Source of the DNA: Trueperaceae bacterium
GTDB taxonomy: Bacteria > Deinococcota > Deinococci > Deinococcales > Trueperaceae
NCBI GenBank assembly: GCA_965213925.1
Contig: OZ243927.1
Location: 1,120,001 to 1,184,000 of the forward strand
Length of the DNA: 64,000 nt
Direction: 5' to 3'
The translations under genes were made by a program, and so were the position numbers. Below are positions 6,369 through 35,633 of the stretch, piece after piece. How positions within the stretch are numbered: the stretch's first letter is position 1; the number at the start of each line of letters is the position of its first letter. Under the pieces are notes generated by a model that did not search any database, was not told where the DNA came from, and saw nothing but the letters and a program-made list of their open reading frames with translations.

Positions 6369-9300
6369 GTGTCCTTGCAACTTATCAACCAATACCGCAG
6401 CAAAGTCGAGCGCTACATCCAGTACGGCGGCTCGCGCAACGAACAGAGTCTCCGCAACGCTTTTTATCAACTCTTAGAAGGCTACGCCCGCACGCAGAGC
6501 TTAGAGTTGATTGCTGAACTCGAGTACCGCGTGGGCGGCGTCGCTGTCTACCCCGATGGCACGCTCAAGGATGCCTTGCGCCAAGACCGCGGCTACTGGG
6601 AGAGCAAAGACCAGTACGATGATCTGTACGAAGAGGTCGATAAGAAGTTTCAGAAGGGCTACCCCAACACCAATATCCTCTTCGATGATACGCGGCAGGT
6701 CCTTCTCTATCAAAACGGACAAGAGGTCGGTCTCGCCGTCGTTGAAGACGCCGAGACCTTAAACGCGCTCCTGAGCCAGTTCGTCAGCTACGAGCCGCCG
6801 AGCGTCAAGACCTTCCGCGACGCGATTGAGAAATTCAAGCTCGATATACCCGACTTGCTGGGCGAACTCCGCAAGGTGATTGAAGAGCAAGCGTCAACGA
6901 ACAGCGACTTCACTGCTCAGCGCAACCGCTTGCTAGACCTGACGCAAAAAGCCATCAACCCACACTTAGGTTTAGAAGACGTGCGCGAGATGGTCATTCA
7001 GCACATCCTGACTGAAGGGATTTTCACCTCGGTCTTTAACGACAGCCACTTTCACCGCGAGAACAACATCGCCCGTGAGCTTTACAAAGTCACCGAGACC
7101 TTTTTCACCGGAGCGCTGAGAAAGAATGCGCTTCTCAAAATTGAGCCCTATTACAACGTCATCAAAGCGGCGGCGGCGAACATCGCCAACCACCACGAAA
7201 AGCAAAAGTTCCTCAAGGTCGTCTACGAAAACTTCTACAAAGCCTACAACCCCGCCGCCACTGACCGCTTGGGCATCGTTTACACCCCCAACGAAATCGT
7301 CCGCTTCATGATCGAAGCCGCTGACCACCTCACCCACAAGCACTTCGGCAAGTTTTTAGGCGACGAAGGCGTGAATATCTTAGACCCCGCCACCGGAACC
7401 GGCACGTTCATCACCGAGATTATCGAGTATTTGCCCAAGCACCAGCTCAAGCACAAATACGCCCACGAACTCTTCTGCAATGAAGTCGCGCTGCTGCCCT
7501 ACTACACCGCGAACCTCAACATCGAATACACCTATCAGCAGAAGATGGGCCACTACGCCGAGTTTGAAAACATCGCGTTTGTAGACACCCTAGAAAACCT
7601 CAACTACGTCGGCTCGGAAGGTCAGTTCAGCATGTTCGAGTTGACGGCTGAGAACCTGGAGCGCATCAAGCGGCAGAACGAGAACAAGATTTCGGTGATT
7701 ATTGGGAATCCGCCTTATAACGCCAATCAACTCAACGAAAATGAGAACAACAAGAACCGCTCCTATCCGTTTATTGACGAACGCATCAAAAATACCTATG
7801 TCAAAGAGAGCACTGCGCAAAAGACCAAAGTGTACGACATGTATTCGCGTTTTATTCGCTGGGCGAGTGACCGCGTGGGTGAAAACGGCGTGATTGCCTT
7901 CGTTGTCAACCGCTCGTTCATAGACTCGCACACTTTTGATGGGTTTAGAAAGGTTGTGGCGGAGGAGTTCGGGGACATTTACATTGTGGATTTAGGTGGC
8001 GATGTTCGCGCTAACCCGAAGCTGTCAGGAACGACGCACAACGTTTTCGGAATTCAAACAGGCGTGACAATCGTCTACTTTGTTAAAAGAGAAAAGCGAG
8101 CGGGCAAAGCCAATATCTACTACACGCGCCGTCCTGAGATGGAAACGGCAAGAGAGAAGTTGCAATGGATAAACGTAGCTGACTTCGAGCAACTACCTTT
8201 TAAGCATATTGTTCCGAATAAACGCCACATTTGGATAAATCAAGCTGAGAATGAATGGGACGATTTATTGCCCGTCGCAACCTCAGAAACAAAAGCAGCA
8301 GAAAAACAAAGTGAAATCAATGCAGTATACAAATTTTACTCTCTTGGGGTTTCAACAAATCGTGATGAATGGGTATACGACTTCAGTAAAGACGTTCTTA
8401 AAGAAAAAGTACAGTTTTTTATCAAGTTTTATGAAGCAGACCGAAAGCGCTGGCTAAAAGAAGGAAGAGATAAGAAAACAAGACAAGAAATTCCAATTGG
8501 CGACTTCGTGAATAGAACTATCAAGTGGACAAGTAATCTACAAAATCATCTAGCACGTGGAACCCGTTTGCAGTTTAACTCTAAAAAAATTGTACAGACG
8601 ATGTATCGTCCTTTTGTTACCCAATGGCTCTACTCAGAAGACACAATGTCTGACAGATTAACTTCAAATCACTTCGAAATGTTTGGGTCGAACTTACAGC
8701 AAAACAACACTGTAATAACCTTCTCTGGAAGTGGCGCATCAAAATCCTTTTCCACTTTTGTTACCGATAAGCTATTCAGCCTAGACCTGTTAGAGAAAAC
8801 TCAATGCCTCCCCCTCTACCGTTACGACGACGAAGGCAACCGCCTAGACAACATCACGGGCTGGGGACTGAAGAAATTTCGGGAACACTACGGCGGCGAC
8901 TTCGCTGAAGAACTCGAGCTGCCTAACCTCAAAGTTGTGCAAAAACATTACGCAGCGCTCGAGGCAAAAATCGAAGAGGTCGCCGAGAGGTTGAGGCTCG
9001 AGGATGGAAACGCTGAGAAAATCCGTTTAGAGCATCAGCTCTCGACGTTGAAAGCGCAACTCCTCAACGTCAAAGAGAACGCCGCTATCTTCTGTTACAC
9101 CTACGGCGTCTTGCACAACCCCGCTTACCGCAAAAAGTACGAACTCAACCTCAAGCGCGAGTTCCCGCATATCCCCTTTTACGAGGACTTCGCGCAGTGG
9201 GCCGCGTGGGGCGAGAGGTTGATGAGTCTGCATCTGGACTATGAGACAGTCGCGCCTTATCCCTTGAAGCGTAACGACGCAAAAAGTGTCAAGAACCCGA

Positions 9301-9620
9301 AAGCGAAACTCAAGGCGGACAGGGAGGCGGGGCTGATTGTGCTGGATTCTGAGACGGGGCTCTCCGGCGTGCCGTCTGAGGTGTGGGACTATAAGCTGGG
9401 GAACCGCTCGGCGCTCGAGTGGGTCTTAGACCGCTATAAGGAGAAAAAGCCGCGTGACCCGACCATCCGCGAGAAGTTCAATGCGTATAGGTTTGTGGAC
9501 TATAAGGAAGAGGTCATTGACCTTTTGAAGCGGGTTTGCACGGTGAGTGTGAAGACGGTAAAAATTATCAGAGAGATGGAAAACCTGGAAAAGATAGGTG
9601 TCGAGAAAATCACGGCGTAG
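6369..9620 (+). CDS. single-chain restriction-modification enzyme (type IIG/ISP-like: nuclease + N6-adenine MTase + TRD, no helicase)
   Basis: PD...ESK nuclease motif, DPATGTGTF motif I, GNPPY motif IV, ISP-type C-terminus (YRPF; YKLGNRSALEWVLDRY). Confidence 0.85.
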   Translation: MSLQLINQYRSKVERYIQYGGSRNEQSLRNAFYQLLEGYARTQSLELIAELEYRVGGVAVYPDGTLKDALRQDRGYWESKDQYDDLYEEVDKKFQKGYPNTNILFDDTRQVLLYQNGQEVGLAVVEDAETLNALLSQFVSYEPPSVKTFRDAIEKFKLDIPDLLGELRKVIEEQASTNSDFTAQRNRLLDLTQKAINPHLGLEDVREMVIQHILTEGIFTSVFNDSHFHRENNIARELYKVTETFFTGALRKNALLKIEPYYNVIKAAAANIANHHEKQKFLKVVYENFYKAYNPAATDRLGIVYTPNEIVRFMIEAADHLTHKHFGKFLGDEGVNILDPATGTGTFITEIIEYLPKHQLKHKYAHELFCNEVALLPYYTANLNIEYTYQQKMGHYAEFENIAFVDTLENLNYVGSEGQFSMFELTAENLERIKRQNENKISVIIGNPPYNANQLNENENNKNRSYPFIDERIKNTYVKESTAQKTKVYDMYSRFIRWASDRVGENGVIAFVVNRSFIDSHTFDGFRKVVAEEFGDIYIVDLGGDVRANPKLSGTTHNVFGIQTGVTIVYFVKREKRAGKANIYYTRRPEMETAREKLQWINVADFEQLPFKHIVPNKRHIWINQAENEWDDLLPVATSETKAAEKQSEINAVYKFYSLGVSTNRDEWVYDFSKDVLKEKVQFFIKFYEADRKRWLKEGRDKKTRQEIPIGDFVNRTIKWTSNLQNHLARGTRLQFNSKKIVQTMYRPFVTQWLYSEDTMSDRLTSNHFEMFGSNLQQNNTVITFSGSGASKSFSTFVTDKLFSLDLLEKTQCLPLYRYDDEGNRLDNITGWGLKKFREHYGGDFAEELELPNLKVVQKHYAALEAKIEEVAERLRLEDGNAEKIRLEHQLSTLKAQLLNVKENAAIFCYTYGVLHNPAYRKKYELNLKREFPHIPFYEDFAQWAAWGERLMSLHLDYETVAPYPLKRNDAKSVKNPKAKLKADREAGLIVLDSETGLSGVPSEVWDYKLGNRSALEWVLDRYKEKKPRDPTIREKFNAYRFVDYKEEVIDLLKRVCTVSVKTVKIIREMENLEKIGVEKITA

Positions 9621-9751: not shown

Positions 9752-10030
9752 ATGACCTTTAAGTGGGACGAGGCAAAGAGTAGGGGTAACGTCCGCAAAC
9801 ATGGCTACAGTTTTGAGGATGCCGAAAAGGTCTTTTCGGGCGTCTACCTTGAAGTTGAGGATGACCGTGAGGATTACGGCGAGCCGCGCTACCTCGTCTT
9901 CGGGCTTCTAAAGGGCAATGTGGTTGTCGTCTGCTACACACTTAGGGGCGAAGACACATACCGAATCATCTCTATGCGAAAGGGGAACCGTAATGAAACA
10001 GACGCCTACTACCAATACGCAGGTTTCTAA
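9752..10030 (+). CDS. brnT: BrnT family toxin
   Basis: FKWDEAKSRGNVRKHG...RIISMRK. Confidence 0.9.
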   Translation: MTFKWDEAKSRGNVRKHGYSFEDAEKVFSGVYLEVEDDREDYGEPRYLVFGLLKGNVVVVCYTLRGEDTYRIISMRKGNRNETDAYYQYAGF

Positions 10031-10289
10031 AACCGATTGGAAGCGTGTGGATAAGCTGCGAGACGAAGATATAGACTACTCTGACATTCCGCCGACCTCA
10101 CCCGAGTTGTTCGCCAAAGCTGCGGTGAAAGAGGGTGGCGTGAATGTTCGTGAACCCAAACAAGCAATTTCGCTCCGGGTAGATAGAGACACTTTGGCTT
10201 GGTTCAAAGCGCAGGGTGAGGGCTATCAAACACATATAAACGCCGTTTTAGAAGCGTATGTAGCGGCGCAGAAAGCAGCGAACGAATGA
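9993..10289 (+). CDS. brnA: BrnA family antitoxin
   Basis: TDWKRV..IDYSDIP..ISLRVDRDTLAWFKAQGEGYQTHIN; overlaps brnT; start set at ATG 9993. Confidence 0.88.
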   Translation: MKQTPTTNTQVSKTDWKRVDKLRDEDIDYSDIPPTSPELFAKAAVKEGGVNVREPKQAISLRVDRDTLAWFKAQGEGYQTHINAVLEAYVAAQKAANE

Positions 10290-11409: not shown

Positions 11410-12884
11410 TACTCAAACGTGTGCCGCAATACGGGTTTACGCGCCGCCGTGACCTCGTCGAGCCTGCGCACGGGCGTGTGGTAGGGCGCGTGTTCTAAGA
11501 AATCAGGGTCTTCCTCGGCGCGTTGTAAAACTTCGGCGAGAATGCTCGCGTAGGCGTCCAGCGTTTCTAACGATTCCGTCTCGGTAGGCTCCACCATCAT
11601 CGCCTCTTTGACGACCAAGGGGAAATACACTGTCATCGGGTGGACGCCGTAGTCGAGGAGCGCTTTAGCGACGTCCATCGTTTTGAGGTCGCCGGGCGGC
11701 TGCGACACGAACTCGTGCATGTTGACGCGCTCGAACGCCGTCTTAAAGCCCGCCTCTTGCATCTTGACGCGGAGGTAGTTGGCGTTTAAGACTGCCATCC
11801 CCGAGACCTGCTCCAAGCCCTCTTTGCCGAGTGCCCGAATGTAGGTGTACGCCCGCACCAAGTTACCGAAGTTGCCGTAAAATGAGCGCATCCGCCCGAT
11901 GGATTGGGGCAGGTCGTATTCGAAGTCGAACCGTTCGCCTTCTTTTTTGATGAGCGGCGCAGGTAAGAAGTCGCGCAGGTGCGCCTTCACGCCCACCGGA
12001 CCCGTGCCGGGACCGCCGCCGCCGTGCGGCGTCGTAAAGGTCTTGTGCAGATTGAGGTGCACGACATCGAAGCCCATGTCACCGGGGCGCGCGCGTCCCA
12101 CAATCGCGTTCGTGTTCGCGCCGTCGTAGTAGAGCTGTGCACCCGCGTCGTGCGCGGCGCGGCTGATTTCTAAGATGTTCGTCTCGAAGAGCCCCAAGGT
12201 ATTCGGATTGGTGAGCATCACGGCGGCGGTGTCGGGACCGAGCGCTTCTTTGAACGCTTCTAAATCCACCTCGCCGTCTTCGCCTGTGGGCACCTCTACA
12301 ACGTCGTAACCCACCATCTTGGCGGTAGCGGGGTTCGTGCCGTGTGCGCCGTCCGGGACGATGACGGTGCGGCGCTGTTCGCCTTCGCCGTTCGCCTCGT
12401 GGTAGGCGCGGATGATGAGGATGCCCGTGAGTTCGCCGTGCGCTCCGGCGGCGGGTTGCAGCGAGACGGCGTCCATGCCTGTAATGGTCGAAAGGTCATT
12501 CTGCAGGTTATAGAGCAGTTCCAACGCGCCCTGCACCGAGTCGGGGTCTGCGTAAGGGTGCAGTTCGGTGAAGAGCTTCGCGGTCTCCTCGTTGACTTTG
12601 GGGTTGTACTTCATCGTGCACGAGCCGAGCGGGTAGACGTTGCCGTCAATGGAGAATTGGCGGTGCGCGAGTTGCGTGTAGTGCCGCACGAGGTCGAGTT
12701 CGGAGACCTCGGGAAGTCTAGGCGGCGCGTCTCGTAGATGCTCGCTGCCGATGAGGTCTGTGAGGGCTGTGCCTTCAGGTTTGGGCGGACGTGCGGCGCG
12801 GCGTCCCTCTTTGGAGCGTTCGAAGATGAGGGGGAAGTCGCCGTCGGTCTGAATCGCAGGTGGGGCGGGGCGTTCTTTAATCAT
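11409..12884 (-). CDS. gcvPB: glycine decarboxylase subunit 2
   Basis: PLGSCTMKYNP, HLNLHKTF PLP lysine, PHGGGGPG. Confidence 0.95.
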   Translation of the reverse strand: MIKERPAPPAIQTDGDFPLIFERSKEGRRAARPPKPEGTALTDLIGSEHLRDAPPRLPEVSELDLVRHYTQLAHRQFSIDGNVYPLGSCTMKYNPKVNEETAKLFTELHPYADPDSVQGALELLYNLQNDLSTITGMDAVSLQPAAGAHGELTGILIIRAYHEANGEGEQRRTVIVPDGAHGTNPATAKMVGYDVVEVPTGEDGEVDLEAFKEALGPDTAAVMLTNPNTLGLFETNILEISRAAHDAGAQLYYDGANTNAIVGRARPGDMGFDVVHLNLHKTFTTPHGGGGPGTGPVGVKAHLRDFLPAPLIKKEGERFDFEYDLPQSIGRMRSFYGNFGNLVRAYTYIRALGKEGLEQVSGMAVLNANYLRVKMQEAGFKTAFERVNMHEFVSQPPGDLKTMDVAKALLDYGVHPMTVYFPLVVKEAMMVEPTETESLETLDAYASILAEVLQRAEEDPDFLEHAPYHTPVRRLDEVTAARKPVLRHTFE

Positions 12885-14852: not shown

Positions 14853-15908
14853 TTAGGGATAAAAGCGCGGTTTGACGACGTCCGCGTGGACGCCTTGACC
14901 GCGTATCTCGACCGCTAACGCGGTGCCGAGTTCGCTCAACGCCGTATCCACCCAAGCCATCGCGACGCCCTCCCTGGTCAGCGGCGAGATCGTACCGGAG
15001 GTGACCTCGCCTACGACGCTGTCCTCATGAAGCACGTGATAGCCCTGCCGCGCCACACCGCGCTGGCGCAGCCGCAAACCGACGAGCTTGCGCTCACACG
15101 CGGGGTTCCACATCGACTCTCGTCCATAGAAGGGCTTGTCTTTGACGACCCAGGCGTAAGGGGAGCAGAGCGGGTTGGTCGCTGCGGTGAATTCATGACC
15201 GAATAAGGGAAAGCCCGCCTCGAGCCGGAGGGTGTCGCGCGCGCCCAGACCGCAAGGCGTCGCACCCTCTTCGGTCAGCGCCCGCCACACCTGCGGCGCG
15301 TCCTCCGCCTCGCAGAAGATTTCGAAGCCGTCTTCGCCCGTGTAGCCCGTGCGGGCGAGCCTCACCTCTTTGTCTGCCAGGGTCGTCTTAAGCGTGCGGT
15401 TTTTCTTGAAACTCGTGATGTCTTCAAAGGTCAGGCGGCTCATCATGAGCGCCGCGCCCGGACCTTGCAGCGCCATGAGCCCCCAGCGCTCAGACTCGTT
15501 TGCGACGTTGGCGTCGTACGCTCCGGTGAGCTGCTCTAAGTGGGGAACGACTTCGTCTACGTTCGAGGCGTTGCAGACGATCAGGTACTCGTTCTCCCCT
15601 TCGCAGTAGATGTAGAGGTCATCGATTAGCCCGCCCTGGTCGTTCGGGAGCATGGAGTATTGCGCTCTGCCGGGTGTGAGCTTGGCGGGATTATTGAGCG
15701 TCGCGTAGCTTAGAAAATCCGTAGCCGCCGCGCCCGTAACGCGAATCTCCCCCATGTGGCTCACGTCGAAAAGACCCGTGCCTTCACGCACCGCGAGATG
15801 TTCCTGGTTGATGCCTGTAGCGTACTGGATAGGCATCTCCCAGCCCGCGAAGTCCACCATGCGTGCGCCGTGTTCGATGTGCAGGTCGTAAAGTGTCGTG
15901 CGTTTCAT
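14853..15908 (-). CDS. gcvT: glycine cleavage aminomethyltransferase
   Basis: FAGWEMP, LFDVSHMG, RTGYTGEDGFE, GLGARDTLRLEAG; start set at ATG 15908. Confidence 0.95.
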   Translation of the reverse strand: MKRTTLYDLHIEHGARMVDFAGWEMPIQYATGINQEHLAVREGTGLFDVSHMGEIRVTGAAATDFLSYATLNNPAKLTPGRAQYSMLPNDQGGLIDDLYIYCEGENEYLIVCNASNVDEVVPHLEQLTGAYDANVANESERWGLMALQGPGAALMMSRLTFEDITSFKKNRTLKTTLADKEVRLARTGYTGEDGFEIFCEAEDAPQVWRALTEEGATPCGLGARDTLRLEAGFPLFGHEFTAATNPLCSPYAWVVKDKPFYGRESMWNPACERKLVGLRLRQRGVARQGYHVLHEDSVVGEVTSGTISPLTREGVAMAWVDTALSELGTALAVEIRGQGVHADVVKPRFYP

Positions 15909-15994
15909 CCCTGATGGTAGCATAGTGCTCTCGGCTGCGATTCGCGAAGGCTATGTATTGGACCCTGCTCAGTTAGGTCTGAGCGGTTAAACTA

Positions 15995-16312
15995 GTGGGA
16001 GGGTGCGCTATGGGGATGCTCGAGCTAGGAGAGGGCAAAAAAGAAAAACGCGCCGTCGTGATAGGGCTCAGCGTCATTCACGTGGGCGCGCTAGCCGGCA
16101 TCATCACGGTGTTCGCTGCGGGGCTCTCGAGCGAGATGACGTTCTCCCCGATGCTCACGGTCGTCGCTGTTGTCGCGACGACGCTCTGGCTCTTCTCCTT
16201 CATTTTGCTCTCGGTCAATATTGCGTATTACATCCTTGCGCCTGAAGAGAAAGAAAATACGAGCGCTGAAAAAGATAACTGTCCATCAGAAAGCCCCGAC
16301 CCTTCACCTTGA
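15995..16312 (+). CDS. small membrane protein (2 TM helices)
   Basis: two long hydrophobic segments; start uncertain (GTG 15995 or ATG 16010). Confidence 0.55.
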   Translation: MGGCAMGMLELGEGKKEKRAVVIGLSVIHVGALAGIITVFAAGLSSEMTFSPMLTVVAVVATTLWLFSFILLSVNIAYYILAPEEKENTSAEKDNCPSESPDPSP

Positions 16313-16494
16313 GCCTGCATCCGAGCCTGGGGTAGTCAGCAGGCGTGAAGCGCGGTTAGTTGAGCCGATGAAGTGTCAGCAACTGACTGTTTTGCAGTTG
16401 CGGGTTGTGCCGTGGGGACGTGACAGCGGTGTGTCAGGATGAAACGAAAGGCGAGCGTACGGCTGCAAAACCTCTACGCTAGCGCCTGCGAAAC

Positions 16495-16662
16495 TTACGA
16501 AGGCTTGGCGCTCAGTGACGGCTCGTCGGCGCGCACTTCTTTAACTGCCCTTTGTTGCTTGGCGCGGCGGCGCAACGCTTCGATAAGGGCTAAGTCGTTG
16601 ACGAGCAAAAGCCCTTTTTCGTTGACCGGAAATTCGTCCAAGTAAACCTTTGGCTGGTTCAT
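16495..16662 (-). CDS. 55-aa hypothetical protein, not in the ORF track (MNQPKVYLDEFPVNEKGLLLVNDLALIEALRRRAKQ...)
   Basis: AGGAGG RBS 5 nt before the ATG, TATACT -10 box at 16686-16691, open frame to TAA. Confidence 0.65.
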   Translation of the reverse strand: MNQPKVYLDEFPVNEKGLLLVNDLALIEALRRRAKQQRAVKEVRADEPSLSAKPS

Positions 16663-16702
16663 AAATACCTCCTGATTACAGTTATAGTATAGGGATACTC
16701 AA

Positions 16703-16742
16703 CTTTGCGGCGTCTTAGCAGCGCTGCTAAGACGCCGCAAAG
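16703..16742. repeat. perfect 40-bp palindrome
   Basis: ctttgcggcgtcttagcagc|gctgctaagacgccgcaaag, no loop and no mismatch. Confidence 0.95.
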
Positions 16743-16884
16743 GACGAAAGTATAAACCGCTCAGTTTTTCTTAGCAGCGCCTTAGCAAGGTCGCTAAGGC
16801 TAAATTAAGACGTCTTCATTAAACTAGATTTTAAGAAAGCTTTCCGAAGAGGTCGGAAACATAATTCACATCTGGGAGGATGTC

Positions 16885-17001
16885 ATGCGTAAAGTTTTAA
16901 TTGCTACAGTGACGGTGGGGTTATTTTTCAGCAGTGTTGCGCTGGCGGGACCGAGCAGAGTTACCTTCGGCGCGAGTACAAATCAAACGACAAGCCGATA
17001 A
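16885..17001 (+). CDS. 38-aa secreted pre-peptide MRKVLIATVTVGLFFSSVALA-GPSRVTFGASTNQTTSR (candidate signalling peptide)
   Basis: GGGAGGA RBS, basic N-terminus, hydrophobic core, A-L-A signal peptidase I site, followed by an intrinsic terminator. Confidence 0.8.
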   Translation: MRKVLIATVTVGLFFSSVALAGPSRVTFGASTNQTTSR

Positions 17002-17016
17002 ATCCGCTAAAAGTCC

Positions 17017-17048
17017 AGCCCGGTCCCACGTGACCGGGCTCTTTTTAT
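17017..17048 (+). terminator. intrinsic terminator of the peptide gene
   Basis: agcccggtc-ccacgt-gaccgggct stem then cttttta. Confidence 0.85.
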
Positions 17049-17266
17049 GGTGGTGTAATACCAATTCCGATTGATTCTTTATCAATCCGAGCGGATGCGA
17101 GCAGGAACGGATATACGGATGGATTGTATGGACTATCATCGAACGCTTTTCTCGGTGATAGGGAATTAAACGGAATCCGTATAACGCGTTTTGTGTATGC
17201 AGTAACGCAAGAGCCGTTAAAGACGTAACTCAATTTTTGCGTACATACGAATAGGCGTTCGTTGAC

Positions 17267-19684
17267 TTAATTATACTCGAGGGCTAACGCCTTAGCCTTG
17301 GTACGCGCTAGAAGCGTACGCGGATCGCCTGGCGGGAGAGCCTGCAGAAGTCGCTCCCAGACAGCGAGGTCGTCAGCCATATATTCGCTGTAGGCGCTCA
17401 GCGCATCTACGTCGTTTGACGCGAGCATCGCTTCGTACATCTGCGCCTCGAGGTGTTCGCGCAGACGCTCGAGCGCGGGCGCTTGCGCCTCCTCTAAAAG
17501 TGGACCTTTATAGAGCGCCATCGCCTCTTTGAGCTTTCCGCTGAGTGAAAACTTGCCGAACTCGAGAAAGTCAGCGCGGACGTCGTACTCGAGCCGGTAA
17601 GGTGGGTTCGACACGGGAATCCACCCGCGCAGCTTTTTGATCGCAACGTAGAGCGCGTTCGTACTACCCGTTTCGCCGTAGAGTTCGAGCGCGAGCTTCT
17701 CCGAACTGACGCCCATCGGGTGCTGCGCTAGAATCGCTAAAAGCTCGAGCGACTGTAGCGGAAGGTCCAGCCGTTTCCCCTCTAACCACACGTCTCGGTG
17801 CCCTAAAAAGCGAAGCTCCAGGGTGACCTCGCCCAAGACTGTATCCCAGAGGTTGCGAAAGTGCACTTCGGGGCCGGACAAGCATCTGAGGCCGCTCTCG
17901 GCTAAATCGCTCAGCGATGCGTGGGTGAGCTGAGACCGCGCCGCCGCTTCGTCGTTAAGCTCCATAAGCGCGTAGGCTCTGTAGAGCCTCGCTCGAGCCT
18001 CTAGGTAAGCAGGGAGCTGTATATCCTCTAAAAGCTTTCCTAAAACCTTGATACCTTTATGCGGAGCTGTGAAGCATAAAACCATGCCTTGCGCGAGCAC
18101 GGCGGGCTGATGATAGATAGGCGCTAGGTCTTCGGTCAGGTGATAGATACGTTCTGCTATCTGGACCGCCTCTTCGTACGCTTCTAAGTCCAACAATGCC
18201 TTGACGAGAGGAAGCCCGTTTCGCCCTAGGTCCTCGCGCGGCGCGCCTTCATAAGCGAGGCGATAGAGGGGTAGGGCTTTCGTGACCTCTCCAGTAGCGA
18301 CGTAGTAGTCGCCTAGAGTCTCTCTGAGCGATTCCGCGCACTGGTCGAAAATACCTGCGACAGTACGCTCGCTCTCGCTCAGCAAACTACCCAACCCGCT
18401 TATCTCACCTGAAAGAATGCGCGCAAACGCATAGTCGTTGATGAGCAGGAGCTTACGCGAGATGTCTTTCATCCCGCTCTTTTCGAAGAGGTCTAGGCTC
18501 CAGCCGCCCCAGTGGAGCGCTTCGCGGTAGTGACCGGCGTCTATGAGCCTTACCGCAAGCGTACCTGCGCTACGCACGGCGTCGTCGTCTCGCCCTTTGC
18601 GCTCGGCAAGCCGCACCGCCCGTTTAAGAAAGCCGATACCTTTCGCAGTGTCCCTCTCAAAGAACCCCTGCATATGGAGCGTAAAGGGCGTCTCTAGCAG
18701 CGCAGCCCGCTGCACCTCAGCGCGCGCTTCTTCGTGGGTGAGGAAAATAACCGCGTAGAGCGCTCTTAACTCGGGCGCTTCGTGGCGCTGAAGGTAGTTT
18801 TGGATGCGCTCTTGGAGTTCCTCGTAGCGGTTGAGCCGAATGCCCGCGGAAAGCTTCCAGAAGAACACGGTGTCGTCTTCGTAGTCGGCGGGTAGAAGGT
18901 CGAGGTAGTGCCAGAGCCGACCGTGCAGCCCCTCGTTGATGAAGTGCGGTCCCGCCTCTGAAAGAACGGTCGACACCCGTTCGGGCAGGTGCCGCACCAC
19001 GAGCGCGAGGGCGCGCCCCCACTCCTCGCGCTCGACGAGCACCTCGAGCAACTCGGATGGCGGCACCGCGATTTCCGTGCCCGGAGGGAGTTTGGGTCCC
19101 CACAGGGTAGGCATGAGCGGCGAGGGCAGCCCTACCTTGTCGTGCAGGGCGAGGTTAAACGTTTCGTAGGCGTAATCCGCCTCTTCAAGCAGCGCGCTGA
19201 CCTCTTCGCGGCTGAGCATCCCGCCCGCGAGCGCGCACGCCTCCTCTTCGGTGAGCTGGAGCGCAGCTTCATCTAAATAGACCGCTTTGGGAACCTCGAG
19301 CGGCACTTTAGAGACGAGAACGAGGCGCTCTGCGTCTGACCCCCTGAGCAGATCGATAAGCTCCGGCGCGTGTTCAGCGCCGAAAAGTAAATAGGTAGGT
19401 CTGCCGTAAACTTCAGCGAACGCCGCTAGAATCCTGAGCCCCGCAGCGACGGGCAACCCCGGCGCGACGAGGGGCACGTCCAGCGCGGTGGAAACCGCCT
19501 CGGAAAATTTGAGCGCTTGCGCCTGCGCGTCACAAGCGTCGGCTTCGTCGAGTTCCAGGACCATAAGCGGTTTCGCTTCTTTTTTGAACTCGCTAAAGAG
19601 TCGCTGAACGCCTAAGTCAGGGCGGTGCGGTAAGATGACCGTGCGTGCACCTTTCAGTTGCGCCAACCTTTTTGAGAGCCACAT
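17267..19684 (-). CDS. large regulator with helical (TPR-like) repeats and a C-terminal winged-helix/BTAD-like domain
   Basis: C-terminal LRFLG..VWLEG..LELLAILAQHP.G.SSEKL..LYG...PYRL...AD...ALYKGPLL pattern; central Ala/Leu-rich helical repeats; start ATG 19684 or 19717. Confidence 0.7.
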   Translation of the reverse strand: MWLSKRLAQLKGARTVILPHRPDLGVQRLFSEFKKEAKPLMVLELDEADACDAQAQALKFSEAVSTALDVPLVAPGLPVAAGLRILAAFAEVYGRPTYLLFGAEHAPELIDLLRGSDAERLVLVSKVPLEVPKAVYLDEAALQLTEEEACALAGGMLSREEVSALLEEADYAYETFNLALHDKVGLPSPLMPTLWGPKLPPGTEIAVPPSELLEVLVEREEWGRALALVVRHLPERVSTVLSEAGPHFINEGLHGRLWHYLDLLPADYEDDTVFFWKLSAGIRLNRYEELQERIQNYLQRHEAPELRALYAVIFLTHEEARAEVQRAALLETPFTLHMQGFFERDTAKGIGFLKRAVRLAERKGRDDDAVRSAGTLAVRLIDAGHYREALHWGGWSLDLFEKSGMKDISRKLLLINDYAFARILSGEISGLGSLLSESERTVAGIFDQCAESLRETLGDYYVATGEVTKALPLYRLAYEGAPREDLGRNGLPLVKALLDLEAYEEAVQIAERIYHLTEDLAPIYHQPAVLAQGMVLCFTAPHKGIKVLGKLLEDIQLPAYLEARARLYRAYALMELNDEAAARSQLTHASLSDLAESGLRCLSGPEVHFRNLWDTVLGEVTLELRFLGHRDVWLEGKRLDLPLQSLELLAILAQHPMGVSSEKLALELYGETGSTNALYVAIKKLRGWIPVSNPPYRLEYDVRADFLEFGKFSLSGKLKEAMALYKGPLLEEAQAPALERLREHLEAQMYEAMLASNDVDALSAYSEYMADDLAVWERLLQALPPGDPRTLLARTKAKALALEYN

Positions 19685-19748
19685 ATGGAATACTATACAC
19701 AAAATGTGGCTCACCATTCTCTTTTGTAAGATATTGCACGGCTGAGTT

Positions 19749-20858
19749 GTGAGATATTATACTGCCCACGTAACATTTTCTAAATCTCAAGAGGTCGTAG
19801 GGAGAGAATTTTTGTCTACGTCTTGTTCGCAAAGGGCAGTTTCAAGGCGTGGTCGCGCAACAAAAGGAGATGACGTTCGTGCAAAACCTCATTTCGGTAC
19901 CTGTTATAGTTACGCAAAGGAGCACCGAGTCATAGAGTCTGAGTCAAATAAGACGAGCGAGCGGCTGCCCAGAGGCTTCGAGCTTATTCAGCATGACAGC
20001 GGCATCGAGACGATCAGTGAGGGCGCGTTGCAGCGGCGTCTTTTAGTGACGCAGCCGGGCGGCGTCGAGCTGCACGAGTTGTCGTTGCGGCGCGGCGAGA
20101 CGCTCACGGTTGCGCCCCGCGAGGGGGTGCAAGAAAGCTACTACATGCTTAAAGGGGTGCTCGTCGGCGCAAACGTGCGCCTGGTCGTCGGTGACTGCTT
20201 GCTGAGCCGCACGCCTGACACGCTCCTCACCCTGCGGGCGGAAGCGTCGACGCGGCTTCTGTATGTCTCGAGCGTCCCCACCTTCTGGAGCGTCTCGCAG
20301 ACGCTCCGCGAACTGATGAATCTAGCGGTTTCCATCGAGAAAAAAGACGGCTACACCGCCGAGCACTGCCACCGTTTGCAGCGTCTGGCGCTGGCGGTGG
20401 GCAAGCAGCTCGGGTTGCCGCAAGAGCGGCTCTACCTCCTAGACGTAGCGGCGTTTTTGCACGACGTAGGCAAAGTCAGGGTGCCCGTCGAGATTTTGCA
20501 AAAACCCAGCCCGCTCACCCCGTCCGAGTGGCGGCTCATCAGGCAGCACCCCACGTTCGGGCGCGAGATGCTAGAGGATACCCTCATCGCCGAGGCTGGA
20601 CCTATCGTCGAGCAGCACCACGAGCGGCCCGACGGCTCGGGCTATCCTTACGGACTCCGGGGGAGCGAAATTTTACTCGAGGCGCATATCGTCGCCATCA
20701 CCGACGCCTTCGACGCGATGACCACCGACAGACCCTACCGCGACGCGCTACCTAGAAACGCTGCGATTGAGCGCATCAACCGACTTGCGGGTAAGCACTA
20801 CGCCGAAGAGGTCGTCGAGGCGTTTTTAGAGGTGATTGCGTCGGACGAATGGCTATAG
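19749..20858 (+). CDS. HD-GYP cyclic-dinucleotide phosphodiesterase with a cupin-like N-terminal domain
   Basis: HDVGK, HHERPDGSGYP, DAFDAMTTDRPYR; true start unclear. Confidence 0.85.
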   Translation: MRYYTAHVTFSKSQEVVGREFLSTSCSQRAVSRRGRATKGDDVRAKPHFGTCYSYAKEHRVIESESNKTSERLPRGFELIQHDSGIETISEGALQRRLLVTQPGGVELHELSLRRGETLTVAPREGVQESYYMLKGVLVGANVRLVVGDCLLSRTPDTLLTLRAEASTRLLYVSSVPTFWSVSQTLRELMNLAVSIEKKDGYTAEHCHRLQRLALAVGKQLGLPQERLYLLDVAAFLHDVGKVRVPVEILQKPSPLTPSEWRLIRQHPTFGREMLEDTLIAEAGPIVEQHHERPDGSGYPYGLRGSEILLEAHIVAITDAFDAMTTDRPYRDALPRNAAIERINRLAGKHYAEEVVEAFLEVIASDEWL

Positions 20859-21554
20859 GTTATGAGCGGCTCGAGACTTCAAAAAGCTAAGCAGCGCCTC
20901 GTTTACGGCGCGCACCGCTAGAGGCACGTTCCAAGCGCGTTTGTCGCGCTCCCCGACGATGTTGCTGACCCCGCGAAGCTCCGCGAAGGGCACGCCGAGT
21001 GCCAAACAAACCTGCGCCGCCGCTGCCCCCTCCATCGACTCCACCGAGAGGTCGAAACGCTCTCGCAGAGTTTCGGCTCCGCCGAACCTTCCTGTAACCG
21101 TTTCGGAGGTGCCAAAAACGCCCGGCACCGCGCCTGTGATTCTCTCCAAAGCCTCGGTCAACCCCTCGTCCGTTGGAAAGACGTTGTAGTGATGGTCTAA
21201 AAGAGGAAAGCCAACCTCTTCCATCCCCAACCAGCCTTTGTCCGTTACGACGCCCGTGTCAATGTGAACTTCTCGCGCCGCTACCGCGACCATCCCAACG
21301 CTCAAAAACGAGCCGACGTACGCCCCCCCTATACCGAACTGAATCACGCGCTCTGGTTGCAGAGTGTGGACGGCGAGCGCTAAACCCGCCGCCGTGTTGA
21401 CCTTAGCCACGCCCAGATGCGCCAAGCGAACCTCTTGAGCGTTGACGCTTCCCGAGTAGAGCTGACCTAACGGAAAGTCAAGTTCGCGGACCTCTTCTAG
21501 CGCTTCTCTTAAAGGTCTTCCTTCCATTTCGGTTGCGGTGATAAGTAGGGTCAT
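20853..21554 (-). CDS. mqnB: futalosine hydrolase (PNP/MTAN family)
   Basis: GVAKVNTA, FGIGGAY, ESMEGAAAA, RGVSNIVGERDKRAW. Confidence 0.8.
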   Translation of the reverse strand: MTLLITATEMEGRPLREALEEVRELDFPLGQLYSGSVNAQEVRLAHLGVAKVNTAAGLALAVHTLQPERVIQFGIGGAYVGSFLSVGMVAVAAREVHIDTGVVTDKGWLGMEEVGFPLLDHHYNVFPTDEGLTEALERITGAVPGVFGTSETVTGRFGGAETLRERFDLSVESMEGAAAAQVCLALGVPFAELRGVSNIVGERDKRAWNVPLAVRAVNEALLSFLKSRAAHNL

Positions 21555-33857: not shown

Positions 33858-35633
33858 TTATAAGCGGCTCCGCGCCCCATACGGCAAGATACTGATAAAT
33901 TCGCCCTCGGCTAACCGCTCTTGAATCTTTTGCCAGAACTTGGGCTCGAGCAGGTCCCCGTGCGCTTTCGTAAACGCGGGATGCAGGGGTTTGGGAATCC
34001 CTAAAAAGGGCAAGAGCTGCTCGGGAAAGACGTCATCAGGTCCGACGTAGTACCAGGGCTCTGAGGCCATCTCTTGCTCATGCGTTTTCGGCTCCGGTAC
34101 GCGGCGGAAGTTGCAGGTCTCCAAGAGGCAAAGCTCATCGTAGTCGTAGAACACAACGCGACCTAGGCGCGTCACGCCGAAGTTTTTCACGAGCATGTCG
34201 CCGGGGAAGATGTTGCTGTAAGCGAGGTCTTTGATGGCTTGCCCGTATTCGGCGACGGCGGCTTCCGATTCCTCTTGCGTCGCCTCGTCGAAGTAGAGGT
34301 TGAGGGGCGTCACGCGCCGCTCCATGTAGAGGTGCTTGGTGATGACCGCGTGGTTTTTGACCTCGAGCGTCTTCGAGGCTAACTCGGTCAGCGTCTCCAA
34401 AAGCTCCGGGCTGAAGTGACGCTTATCGAACGCCAAATGCTCGAACTCCTGCGCGTCGATGAGCCGCCCCGCCCTGTCGTGGTGAAAGACGAGGTCGTAG
34501 CGCCCTCTGATCTTCTCTCTGCTGGTGTCTTTGGGCGGGTCGAAGCGGTCTCTGATGAGCTTAAAGACGAGGTCGTAGTCCTGCGCGGTAAAGACCGTCA
34601 TGACCATGCCGGGAATCCCAGGCGCGGGCTCGAACGCATGGTCCGTGCTCTCCTCTAAGTGCGCCAAAAGCTCGCGGTACATCTCCGTTTTGCCGTGCTT
34701 ATGGTAGCCGAGCGCGATATAGAGTTCGCTCAGCTTTTTGTGGGGGAGAAGCTCGCGCAAGAACCTGACCAGGTCGAAAGGACGCGGCGCGGCGACGTGA
34801 AAGTACGAGTGCGTGTAGCTGAAGAGTACGCCGACACAGTCCTCGCCGGAGATGAGCGCGTCTATAACGAGTCCGTCCGGCTCGTGGAGGAGGGCGAGCG
34901 CGACGGGAACGCGCCCATTCTCCGTCACGGCGCGTCCCACCAGATAGGCCGCTTTGCCCCGGTAGAAAACCTCAGCGGCGACGTCCAGATGAAGGATGGG
35001 ACCTCCCGCGACCTCTTGCAGACGTTTTGCCACCCGCTCGGCGTCGCGTACGATATCTTGGCAGGCCGCTTCTATCGGCACGTCCCGCAGGATATGCGTC
35101 ACCGCTTTCGCGACGCAGTCCGCCCCTAAATCTTTGCAGGTATGGCGTCTAAACGCCTGCGCCGTCGCGGGCGTCGGGGGTTCGGAGAAGTCGGTGCGGA
35201 CGAACTCGATCTGCTCGTCCACGCCTACCGTGACGAAGATACGCCGCGTTAGCGAGTTGAAGAAGGTCTCGGCGAGTTCCCAGTCGGGAGCGTGAGCGAT
35301 GCGGCTCGAGAACACCGCTTTAAGCCCCATCCAGAGCATCTTGTCGTGCAGCCTCTCCCCGAGTAGCGCCCTGATCTCTTCGACGATAGCCGCTACTGCC
35401 TCCTTGCGCAGGGAGAGTCGGTGCGCCGAGTCGGTGCGCCAGCCCTGCCAGTCGCGCCGCTCGAAACGGCGTTGGGCAAGCGTGGTCACAGCTTCGAATT
35501 TGTCTCGGTAGGTTCGAAACGCTTCGTAGATGCGCTCTGCGCCGACTGCAGCCCGGCGGCTGTCCGTGAGGGCTTCGCAAGGAGGTTTAGGCTCTGAAGC
35601 GGGATGGAGTGGCTCAGTTGTGGGTGCTGCCAT
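33858..35633 (-). CDS. aceK: isocitrate dehydrogenase kinase/phosphatase
   Basis: LAETFFNS, KHGKTE, APGIPGMVM, DRAGRLID, IFPGDMLVKNFGVTR..VVFYDYDE. Confidence 0.92.
   Translation of the reverse strand: MAAPTTEPLHPASEPKPPCEALTDSRRAAVGAERIYEAFRTYRDKFEAVTTLAQRRFERRDWQGWRTDSAHRLSLRKEAVAAIVEEIRALLGERLHDKMLWMGLKAVFSSRIAHAPDWELAETFFNSLTRRIFVTVGVDEQIEFVRTDFSEPPTPATAQAFRRHTCKDLGADCVAKAVTHILRDVPIEAACQDIVRDAERVAKRLQEVAGGPILHLDVAAEVFYRGKAAYLVGRAVTENGRVPVALALLHEPDGLVIDALISGEDCVGVLFSYTHSYFHVAAPRPFDLVRFLRELLPHKKLSELYIALGYHKHGKTEMYRELLAHLEESTDHAFEPAPGIPGMVMTVFTAQDYDLVFKLIRDRFDPPKDTSREKIRGRYDLVFHHDRAGRLIDAQEFEHLAFDKRHFSPELLETLTELASKTLEVKNHAVITKHLYMERRVTPLNLYFDEATQEESEAAVAEYGQAIKDLAYSNIFPGDMLVKNFGVTRLGRVVFYDYDELCLLETCNFRRVPEPKTHEQEMASEPWYYVGPDDVFPEQLLPFLGIPKPLHPAFTKAHGDLLEPKFWQKIQERLAEGEFISILPYGARSRL

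Follow-up and report, generated by a model that had tools for sequence, protein, structure and literature searches.

The window, by which we mean the whole 64,000-nucleotide stretch of DNA that was analysed, carries at 16885-17001 on the + strand a small gene that encodes the 38-aa pre-peptide MRKVLIATVTVGLFFSSVALAGPSRVTFGASTNQTTSR. The gene has a Shine-Dalgarno sequence, GGGAGG (16874-16879, + strand), 5 nt before its ATG. Its product divides into a predicted Sec-type signal peptide, MRKVLIATVTVGLFFSSVALA (16885-16947, + strand), and a predicted mature 17-mer, GPSRVTFGASTNQTTSR (16948-16998, + strand), with an A-L-A cleavage motif between them that agrees by eye with the -3/-1 rule. Signal peptides were called with an in-house signal-peptide/RBS heuristic rather than with SignalP; small ORFs of this type number four in the entire 64-kb window, and the one at 16885-17001 is the only one within 16000-21000. 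An intrinsic-terminator-like hairpin and T-run lie 3' of the gene (17017-17050, + strand), the hairpin (17017-17040) having nine pairs, seven of them G-C, and being followed by CTTTTTATGG. Three homologues of the peptide (38-39 aa) are identical to it at 20-21 of 21 signal-peptide residues and have divergent mature tails. One of these, P0018, and the regulator homologue P0002 are both on 4738-nt contigs, and another, P0019, and the regulator homologue P0008 are both on 3055-nt contigs.

Convergent with the peptide gene is the gene for an 805-aa regulator (17267-19684, - strand), which we describe from Pfam, profile comparison with PDB sequences and an AlphaFold model. Because its close relatives are 798-806 aa long (n = 10), its start is placed at the ATG at 19684 (MWLSKR...), and an alternative start giving an 816-aa ORF was rejected. 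The AlphaFold model (pLDDT 92.3) has an alpha/beta STAND-like N-domain without a P-loop (aa 1-190; 19115-19684, - strand), a long helical/TPR array (aa 209-617; 17834-19060, - strand), a winged helix (aa 622-704; 17573-17821, - strand) and a C-terminal BTAD-like helical domain (aa 705-805; 17270-17572, - strand). In the fold search the top match was 6mfv_A (E = 2.8e-9), a STAND-TPR protein. The Pfam matches to TPR_12, Trans_reg_C and BTAD are all sub-threshold; comparison with PDB sequences identifies the TPR region clearly (profile positions 324-612). Relatives of the regulator carry a precomputed Pfam assignment to PF27103 (YTH3_C). Walker A is absent from all 27 aligned members of the family. 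Among close relatives, identity is 0.72-0.75 in the TPR region at about aa 440-580 and 0.89 in the DNA-binding domain. The preliminary description had reported a small ORF with a ribosome-binding site, a Sec-type signal peptide and its own terminator, which the sequence confirms, and a large helical-repeat, MalT/SARP-like regulator with a C-terminal DNA-binding domain, which the model and its fold match support.

Divergent from the regulator is a gene for an HD-GYP-type phosphodiesterase (19749-20858, + strand; HD_5, E = 5e-31; HD, 8.8e-19), whose translation contains the motifs HDVGK and GSGYPYG and which reaches 99 bits against NCBIfam nitric_RR_NosR, below the cutoff of 400. A sigma-70-like promoter upstream of the regulator (19756-19784, - strand; TTTAGA-17-TATAAT, 10/12), identified by consensus match only, lies inside the annotated 5' end of the HD-GYP gene, so the true start of the latter is uncertain. 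This enzyme had earlier been proposed as the output of the system. The divergent arrangement stands, but the output link is weak, since HD-GYP neighbours occur at just two of 18 relatives' loci (L005 and L020) and the regulator/HD-GYP intergenic region holds none of the 11-bp boxes described below; whether the gene belongs to a peptide-regulator module is uncertain.

On the other side of the locus, and divergent from the secreted-peptide gene, lies orf55, a 55-aa small gene (16495-16662, - strand) with an AGGAGG ribosome-binding site 6 nt upstream. This gene at the left edge of the finding, which the preliminary description did not mention, is conserved. It has no Pfam or NCBIfam match, and a profile search placed it among 18 Deinococcota peptides with a conserved leader-like N-terminal part and a variable C-terminus; five full-length close homologues share a nearly invariant stretch of 36 N-terminal residues and vary at the C-terminus. 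Homologues occur at L001, L003, L004, L016 and L046/L047, in most cases adjoined by RiPP enzymes. Judged by its sequence, orf55 is a member of a RiPP-precursor-like family.

The pairing of regulator and small secreted peptide recurs. Small ORFs of 33-54 aa with an RBS, a basic N-terminus, a hydrophobic core and a small-x-small site adjoin the regulator in 13 of 18 loci of full-length relatives (L001, L003, L004, L006, L008, L010, L011, L012, L015, L016, L020, L028 and L030; that of L008 reaches 55 aa counted from an internal Met) and in both Deinococcus plasmid loci, in one of which the ORF is annotated in RefSeq. At eight of the 13 the small ORF is convergent with the regulator, from a few-nt overlap to 137 nt from its stop. 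The heuristic returned 12 matches in 33.5 kb of near flanks, where the rate in far sequence (10 matches in 141.5 kb) predicts 2.4 (Poisson P = 7.4e-6; P values here are optimistic because the loci are phylogenetically non-independent). In all 16 peptides read, a small-x-small motif ends the hydrophobic core by eye. Peptides of distant loci are unrelated (best tblastn E = 0.83); within clades the signal peptide is conserved and the tail variable, which is the pattern of pheromone pro-peptides. One MAG has two paralogous regulator-peptide pairs (L001 and L010) with different peptides.

The promoters of these peptides have a common repeat architecture, a feature that the preliminary description did not mention. 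In the window, two exact CTTAGCA boxes with 11-bp spacing (16770-16787, + strand) lie 98-115 nt upstream of the small-ORF ATG. Nearby is a perfect 40-bp palindrome (16703-16742; 20+20 nt, 100% complementary), a candidate operator formed by two inverted copies of the tandem box pair CTTTGCG-N4-CTTAGCA in a 2+2 head-to-head arrangement; with up to two mismatches, the two-box pattern occurs in the 64 kb only at these two places. Of ten peptide promoters, seven have 7-mer direct repeats with a spacing of precisely 11 bp in the region -150 to -50, and the remaining spacings between 7 and 25 bp are each seen in 0-3 promoters; against a background of 0.073 per 100-nt window the binomial P is 1.1e-6, again with non-independent loci. 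Members of the family have related box motifs (GGTTGCC, GGTTAGCA and CTTAGCA), and the window, L001, L046 and L047 each have them in 2+2 inverted arrays at divergent promoters. Direct repeats spaced 11 or 22 bp are binding targets of SARPs according to the available text of PMC10936776, and the sequence makes the boxes at 16770-16787 a candidate binding site for the winged-helix/BTAD-like domain.

We interpret this arrangement as an autoinducer circuit, a self-contained peptide-pheromone system that operates as RRNPP systems do but with a non-homologous receptor; our confidence in this reading is about even. Sec would export the 38-aa pre-peptide, and cleavage after VALA would leave a 17-residue pro-peptide, perhaps shortened further by extracellular processing. 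In dense populations the peptide would re-enter the cytoplasm through an oligopeptide permease and bind the TPR array of the regulator, a protein of MalT-like build (nucleotide-binding-type N-domain, TPR sensor, C-terminal DNA-binding domain) that has lost its P-loop and carries a SARP-like winged-helix/BTAD effector. Ligand binding would free or oligomerise this effector, and we infer that the protein bound to the CTTAGCA boxes, which lie at 11-bp spacing between the divergent peptide gene and orf55, is the adjacent regulator; from there it would activate both genes, the peptide gene in positive feedback. In relatives, the same operator would drive adjacent RiPP biosynthetic operons. The earlier reading of the locus as an RRNPP analogue is supported in part, by the conserved pairing, the peptide variation, the SARP-type 11-bp repeats and the peptide transporter or peptide-modifying neighbours of many relatives, and is weak in its HD-GYP output.

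Several observations count against an autoinducer. Opp genes and peptidases are absent from the scanned part of the window (769-40209), and L007 and L009 have an Opp operon in place of a small secreted ORF despite full downstream flanks. In L001, L016, L046 and L047 an rSAM/SPASM operon ends with the small ORF, and the mature N-terminus of its product (ESGGAGxPGGG) is conserved in the three Deinococcus loci, L016, L046 and L047, which fits a modified product and a signal equally well. Among close relatives of the regulator the TPR region is just a little less conserved than the DNA-binding domain and has no sharp specificity hot-spot. The classical role of SARP-type regulators is to activate the cluster in which they reside rather than to serve as receptors for its peptide. 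Since the cells of Deinococcota are surrounded by an outer envelope, a 17-mer could signal from one to another only after processing or through a channel.

The regulator's neighbours in relatives vary and include c-di-GMP enzymes, Opp/Dpp components (6/18 loci), M16 or S9 peptidases (5/18) and RiPP maturases (6/18 and both plasmid loci); L008 has a class III lanthipeptide precursor (NF038154, 24.8 bits, cutoff 22). The frequent association with RiPP gene clusters, missed in the preliminary description, supports another reading, which we consider rather unlikely: the regulator would be a STAND/SARP-type pathway activator that senses a different ligand through its TPRs, and the peptide a regulated output without feedback, such as an exported bacteriocin-like or surface-active effector. 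RiPP enzymes flank the regulator in L001, L004, L006, L008, L010, L016, L046 and L047, boxes sit at divergent promoters of RiPP clusters, and boxes in peptide promoters make the peptide a target under either reading; activation of biosynthetic clusters by SARPs is described in the available text of PMC10936776. Against this, in the window and in L003, L011, L015 and L028 the pair stands without any gene for biosynthesis, immunity or export. Predicted mature peptides of just seven residues (GSFASQR and GVSMHSR; L012, L030 and L020) are short for an effector and typical of a pheromone, and tails diverge fast between close relatives whose regulators are 80-87% identical.

It is improbable that the small ORF is instead a part of RiPP machinery, either a second precursor that the radical SAM enzyme of the gene just upstream modifies before Sec export or a small immunity or single-pass membrane peptide that keeps its "signal peptide" as an anchor without cleavage, with the window copy an orphan remnant. 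At L001, L016, L046 and L047 the ORF stands 0-175 nt after an rSAM/SPASM gene on the same strand, and it follows an rSAM C-methyltransferase in L004; tails contain cysteines in L001, L004, L016 and L047, and orphan immunity genes are common. Yet separate leader-type precursors exist in L001, L004, L016, L046 and L047 (the orf55 family) and in L008 (class III lanthipeptide), the small-x-small motif is present in 16/16 peptides, the L046 tail lacks cysteine, and a maturase is absent nearby at most loci, the window included. That orf55 is the sensed signal, as a RiPP-type pheromone with the Sec peptide as an accessory, is very improbable: its invariant N-terminus and variable C-terminus, its place across the box-containing intergenic region and the M16 peptidase and MFS exporter genes alongside its homologues in L001, L004 and L016 favour this, but it occurs at 4/18 loci, the window and two plasmid loci against 13/18 and the same three for the Sec peptide, and maturase and exporter are absent near it in the window and near its homologue in L003.

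We found no published description of the regulator-peptide pair. Known peptide cell-to-cell signalling systems of this kind belong to Gram-positive bacteria, and the autoinducer circuit proposed here, whose pairing recurs across the Deinococcus-Thermus phylum, is a good candidate for such signalling beyond them. Like the RRNPP(A) systems of Bacillota (PlcR-PapR, NprR-NprX, Rap-Phr, AimR-AimP and Rgg-SHP), it sets a cytoplasmic TPR protein beside a small gene for a Sec-exported pro-peptide, with a conserved signal part, a variable mature part and more than one paralogous pair in a genome. Of the five computational RRNPP criteria in the available text of PMC10075063, four describe the Deinococcota pair, and control of adjacent RiPP clusters would resemble that of RaS-RiPPs by Rgg/SHP, as far as the accessible part of PMC13361665 describes it. 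The receptor differs in length, 805 aa against 250-500 in RRNPP systems, and in layout, having no N-terminal HTH but a STAND-like domain at the N-terminus and a SARP-like DNA-binding domain at the C-terminus; RRNPP receptors are absent from the fold matches listed for its model. The phylum is also different (Deinococcota), the gene order is mostly convergent, and peptide binding and import are steps that we infer.

Like large SARPs and STAND regulators such as Streptomyces AfsR and E. coli MalT, the regulator combines a NOD-type domain with a TPR sensor and a DNA-binding effector, in the sensor-before-effector order of MalT. Unlike in these proteins, Walker A is missing throughout the aligned family, and the regulator has as its conserved partner a small secreted peptide, a kind of partner not known for AfsR or MalT. 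In contrast to SARPs, the Trans_reg_C and BTAD scores fall below cutoff and the domain has a Pfam family of its own, PF27103 (YTH3_C). The 11-bp direct repeats in target promoters are a likeness to SARPs in the available text of PMC10936776, where the SARP domain of AfsR is N-terminal whereas the SARP-like domain here is C-terminal. Finally, as with cluster-situated RiPP regulators, rSAM/SPASM, class III lanthipeptide, LanB-type or lasso genes adjoin the regulator in eight related loci and the divergent promoter of the cluster carries operator boxes, but here the regulator-peptide pair is also found without any biosynthetic gene, as in the window.

The small open reading frame at 16885–17001 (+) encodes a 38-residue peptide that divides into a predicted signal peptide, MRKVLIATVTVGLFFSSVALA, and a mature part, GPSRVTFGASTNQTTSR. 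It is preceded by the Shine-Dalgarno sequence GGGAGG, 5 nt 5′ of the start, and followed by a terminator-like hairpin at 17017–17040 (+), which bears out the description of this ORF that had been made from the sequence alone. The peptide is positive for Sec secretion by our own heuristic (basic N terminus, hydrophobic core, small-x-small site). For small ORFs, the heuristic requires an SD-like motif, K/R near the N terminus, and an uncharged hydrophobic core of 10 residues together with a small-x-small site; four small ORFs in 64 kb satisfy it, of which 16885–17001 is the sole one within 16000–21000. A Pfam match of the ORF to PsbT (E = 0.0073, below cutoff) was rejected as a hydrophobic-helix artefact, and an Rfam match to uxuA in a scan of 15900–20000 (22.8 bits against a gathering score of 66.8) was attributed to chance. 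The small ORF is convergent with the regulator gene (17267–19684, −), with 265 nt separating their stop codons. Three close homologues of the peptide (38, 39, and 39 aa) share 20–21 of 21 signal residues with it, and the four tails fall into two types, GPSRVTFGASTNQTTSR / APGTKTFGANTNQTTNR versus GPSKVKPCSVGTSSTQAK / GPTKVKPCGAGSAHAQSK, which differ in length by one whole codon. Two of the three homologues lie on contigs whose length equals that of contigs with close regulator homologues. Distant peptides show no detectable sequence likeness (tblastn of the 38-aa peptide against 45 loci, best E = 0.83), and the feature heuristic was therefore used to trace them.

These 45 loci were returned by a scan of the genome collection with the regulator, and 18 of them hold most or all of it: L001, L003–L013, L015, L016, L020, L025, L028, and L030, with L002 left out as a duplicate of L001. 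The regulator is cut at its 3′ end in L013 and frameshifted in L015, and in L030 its N-terminal part lies in another frame. At 12 loci the heuristic identified a small ORF of the secreted type no more than 1 kb from the regulator. One of these, 9029–9142 in L007, was then rejected as false, lying inside an SBP gene on the opposite strand. Two more small ORFs were added, one in L008 that the heuristic had missed (MCRPRSYLQICLLRLAVLALVWAGLASA followed by DPSDP...) and one in L020 that is 2.6 kb upstream of the regulator and directly ahead of an HD-GYP gene. The preliminary description had proposed scanning the flanks of receptor homologues for such ORFs, and their presence at 13 of the 18 loci speaks for the pairing. 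Among the other five, the flanks of L005, L013, and L025 are cut, and L007 and L009 have an Opp operon behind the regulator in place of the small ORF. The small ORF is convergent with the regulator, as in the window, in eight loci (L001, L003, L004, L006, L008, L011, L015, and L016), with spacings to the regulator stop that run from a slight overlap up to 137 nt. Heuristic matches number 12 in 33.5 kb of near flanks versus 10 in 141.5 kb of far flanks, with 2.4 expected near (Poisson P = 7.4e-6, a value that still counts the rejected L007 ORF and is optimistic because the loci are related to one another). An independent collection contributed two further full-length loci on Deinococcus megaplasmids, both with a small ORF (2/2), one of them annotated as a 53-aa hypothetical protein. 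One Truepera MAG carries two paralogous regulator–peptide pairs, L001 and L010, with different peptides; in L010 a PemK/MazF toxin gene lies just 5′ of the regulator. Read by eye, a small-x-small motif (ALA, SFA, AIA, GLA, ASA, VLA, GFA, VSA, ARA, AAA, or ACA) closes the hydrophobic core in 16 of 16 peptides, and the predicted mature parts span 7–34 residues. Judged from these sequences, the small peptides beside the regulators appear to behave like pro-peptides.

The region upstream of the peptide gene contains candidate operator boxes, direct repeats of CTTAGCA at 16770 and 16781 (+). Their spacing was analyzed at ten loci that have their own region upstream of the small ORF (the window, L003, L006, L008, L010, L011, L012, L015, L020, and L028), leaving out L030, a near-copy of L012, and L001, L004, and L016, where a gene abuts the ORF. 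A 7-mer direct repeat with at most one mismatch and a spacing of exactly 11 bp occurs between −150 and −50 in 7 of the 10 peptide promoters. Other spacings from 7 to 25 bp are each found in 0–3 loci, with 22 bp in three, and random 100-nt windows from the same loci give a background of 0.073, corresponding to a binomial P of 1.1e-6 for 7/10. The divergent promoter region between the small ORF and orf55, a 55-aa gene, also holds a perfect 40-bp palindrome (16703–16742) made of two inverted copies of the degenerate pair CTTTGCG-N4-CTTAGCA. Apart from the palindrome and the repeats at 16770 and 16781, no match to the box pair exists in the 64 kb with up to two mismatches. The divergent promoters of L001 and of the Deinococcus plasmid loci L046 and L047 repeat the layout of the palindrome, 2+2 inverted boxes spaced 11 bp apart, with the related motif GGTTGCC, and L008 has three such boxes in the stretch that separates the small ORF from a lanthipeptide precursor gene. 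A first look for exact 7-mers common to the intergenic regions listed none in at least four regions. We infer that the adjacent regulator binds these candidate boxes.

The regulator start was placed at 19684, giving a protein of 805 aa, because ten relatives with 77–87% identity are 798–806 aa long. Pfam matches to it are all sub-threshold: TPR_12 scores 26.6 bits (cutoff 30.1) and, in the C-terminal 199 aa, Trans_reg_C scores 21.6 bits (cutoff 26.2) and BTAD 21.3 bits (cutoff 22.1). When a 27-member profile was compared with the PDB, it matched TPR proteins at positions 324–612 (best E = 1.7e-24) and, weakly, OmpR/PhoB winged helices at 641–705. An AlphaFold2 model calculated from the 27-member alignment (mean pLDDT 92.3, pTM 0.87) comprises an alpha/beta N-domain (aa 1–190), an uninterrupted helical array (aa 209–617), a winged helix (aa 622–704, with strands at 622–639, helices at 643–686, and a hairpin near 702), and a helical C-terminal domain (aa 705–804). 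A Foldseek search of the PDB with this model ranked first the TPR-sensor STAND protein 6mfv_A (E = 2.8e-9 over 658 columns) and second Avs3, with TM-scores that are low (0.25/0.30), as expected when comparing multi-domain proteins. The fold matches include the STAND proteins 6mfv_A and 8dgc_B; the matches listed after the first two are generic helical-repeat proteins, mostly TPR, with no Rap, Rgg, NprR, PlcR, PrgX, or AimR receptor at ranks 1–50. A language-model search with residues 1–210, a lead only, gave AAA_16/AAA_22/STAND look-alikes (scores 0.91–0.93), and a GK[ST] P-loop is absent from the N terminus of all 27 members. MalT consists of a NOD-type domain, a repeat sensor, and a C-terminal DNA-binding domain. 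On the strength of the model, the Foldseek and language-model searches, and the missing P-loop, the predicted domain order of the regulator is MalT-like, its nucleotide site is degenerate, and its effector is SARP-like, in agreement with the C-terminal wHTH/BTAD-like, MalT/SARP-like architecture first proposed for it.

A word-indexed search for relatives of the regulator yielded 17 proteins, and an exhaustive profile search yielded 3865 representatives at E ≤ 1e-3, of which 628 reach E ≤ 1e-30. All of the best 150 profile matches have E ≤ 1e-129, and they are mostly full length. The relatives are about 800–870 aa long and carry the Pfam 38.1 family PF27103 (YTH3_C), and the named members all belong to Deinococcota (Trueperaceae, Calidithermus, and Deinococcus). 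We do not claim a specificity region, as close relatives show a mere mild conservation dip at aa 440–580. The C-terminal DNA-binding domain alone (approximately residues 622–788) also ends GAF-domain proteins of actinobacteria (L024 and L034) and matches 36 of 51 Acinetobacter plasmid records (H5, H10–H20); its distribution suggests a mobile effector module joined to different sensors.

For a conserved core of regulator, exported peptide, and boxes before the peptide gene, combined with variable cargo, the most economical account is an autoinducing circuit that works like the RRNPP systems of Bacillota. We regard this reading as an even bet. In such a circuit, the peptide would leave the cell by Sec, be processed, and be re-imported, and the TPR array of the regulator would then bind it, thereby activating the SARP-like domain on the boxes.

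The cargo includes a class III lanthionine synthetase and its precursor in L008 (810 bits, cutoff 575; precursor NF038154, 24.8 bits, cutoff 22), a LanC-like protein in L010, and a lasso cyclase, which scores below cutoff, and protease in L006. M16 peptidases are present in L001, L004, and L016, S9 peptidases in L006 and L010, and Opp/Dpp components in L007, L009, L013, L020, L025, and L030. Alternatively, the peptide could be nothing more than an output under the control of a cluster-situated activator, a reading that we consider unlikely and that nonetheless ranks highest among the alternatives. Other neighbors are rSAM/SPASM maturases (L001, L016, L046, and L047) and a RiPP rSAM C-methyltransferase (L004; TIGR03975, 496 bits, cutoff 282). 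The peptide might also be an rSAM substrate, an anchor, or an immunity component; we judge this improbable. In the window itself, the scanned stretch 769–40209 showed neither peptide transporters nor peptidases nor RiPP enzymes, and the surroundings of the peptide gene are housekeeping genes (glycine cleavage, FtsY, GltX, and ribosomal proteins). Also encoded there are a Type ISP restriction-modification enzyme (6369–9617, +; Type_ISP_C 1e-90), with a BrnA-type antitoxin gene after it (9918–10286, +), the isocitrate dehydrogenase kinase/phosphatase AceK (33861–35633), and a bacterial type IB topoisomerase (39124–40209, −; Topoisom_I and Top1B_N_bact).

The orf55 gene (16495–16662, −) has a strong RBS and is a real gene, with no Pfam or NCBIfam family. 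A profile search found a family of 18 members, those named all from Deinococcota, with a conserved, leader-like N terminus and clade-specific C termini such as DINIYKCGSAAL. Family members lie beside RiPP enzymes in L001, L004, L016, L046, and L047 and without them in the window and L003. From its sequence, we read orf55 as a RiPP-precursor-type peptide whose promoter would share the operator region; that it, rather than the Sec-type peptide, is the true signal is very improbable. Just 5′ of the orf55-family gene in L046 is a second, different precursor-like small ORF (11937–12113, +) that ends in IIDIMCRG, and stretches homologous to it occur in intergenic regions of L047 and L016; Deinococcus clusters seem to hold two precursor types. 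Following the two precursors, L046 has an annotated lantibiotic dehydratase and a pitrilysin-family protein. In the window, an ORF of 105 aa (15995–16312, +) converges on orf55; it has hydrophobic segments, matches no family, and has no homologue in the related loci.

Enzymes of c-di-GMP metabolism are found near the regulator in the window, L005, and L020 (HD-GYP), in L016 (EAL), and in L046, 4–7 kb off. The window copy (19749–20858, +; HD_5 E = 5e-31, HD and GYP motifs) is divergent from the regulator, and no Pfam family matches its N-terminal 190 residues. Where it starts is uncertain: the first ~50 codons of the ORF (19749–19900) look non-coding and contain a promoter-like site of the regulator, and the real start is probably further downstream than 19749. 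The preliminary description had made this gene the output of the system. The divergent phosphodiesterase gene stands, but its role as output is the weakest part of that proposal, with no 11-bp boxes in the intergenic region that it shares with the regulator.

Signaling by cytoplasmic TPR receptors with an adjacent Sec-exported pro-peptide is regarded as a defining trait of Bacillota and of their phages. Our literature searches found no work tying Deinococcus or Deinococcota to RRNPP-type or pro-peptide signaling and no description of such a regulator–peptide system; further searches gave Bacillota systems only among the matches listed, one combining Deinococcus with RiPP, radical SAM, or lanthipeptide gave general RiPP work only among the matches listed, and a search for 'YTH3' gave nothing relevant. 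For thermophilic Deinococcus-Thermus, no convincing peptide system is reported in PMC6022435. We tentatively propose, with somewhat less confidence than the circuit itself, that the pairs form the first genetically encoded peptide-pheromone quorum sensing family outside Bacillota and independent of RRNPP. This family would have a STAND/TPR receptor that lacks the P-loop and carries a SARP-like effector at its C terminus, extend across Deinococcota (Trueperaceae, Thermaceae, and Deinococcaceae) in hundreds of sequence clusters, diversify its receptor–peptide pairs like pherotypes, and activate the RiPP clusters next to it as well as, in some lineages, c-di-GMP turnover. If true, such a convergent Deinococcota equivalent would extend peptide quorum sensing both phylogenetically and structurally and would mean that a STAND-type regulator of bacteria has a known class of natural ligands; silent RiPP clusters of Deinococcus, Truepera, and Calidithermus could then be switched on by adding the peptide. 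With small components and an operator predicted to single-base precision, the proposal is testable.

Five RRNPP criteria are listed in a section of PMC10075063, and four of them are present or plausibly present here, with receptor length as the departure. Both systems have a small pro-peptide (38 aa here and 33–55 aa in relatives, within the 10–100 aa of RRNPP), a TPR receptor (here from the sub-threshold TPR_12 score, the PDB matches, and the modeled helical array), and directly neighboring receptor and pro-peptide genes, 265 nt apart in the window and between overlap and 137 nt in the eight relatives; the same section gives −50 to 191 bp for reference RRNPP pairs. RRNPP pro-peptides are secreted through Sec, as judged by a SignalP SP/SPI call; for the peptide here, Sec secretion is predicted by our own heuristic. 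In contrast, RRNPP receptors are 250–500 aa long and the regulator 805 aa, and the fold of the regulator, with a STAND-TPR protein as top match among those listed, is not that of Rap, Rgg, NprR, PlcR, PrgX, or AimR. Because receptor length and fold differ, the system may work like RRNPP without being a member of that family. The RRNPP detection tool described in that section filters on 250–500-aa receptors and would therefore miss the regulator family. With SARP regulators the system shares 11-bp repeats in its putative target promoters, and a passage of PMC10936776 describes SARP targets as direct repeats 11 or 22 bp apart. However, the SARP domain is N-terminal, whereas the SARP-like domain here is C-terminal (aa 622–805), and the winged helix and BTAD of SARPs are represented by sub-threshold Pfam scores, with relatives carrying YTH3_C instead. 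With MalT/AfsR-like STAND proteins the regulator shares a repeat sensor after the NOD; their functional Walker A has no counterpart here, although the alpha/beta N-domain and the STAND fold match are retained. The regulator is therefore both SARP-like and STAND-like, yet departs from each class in one defining feature, the domain position of the former and the P-loop of the latter.
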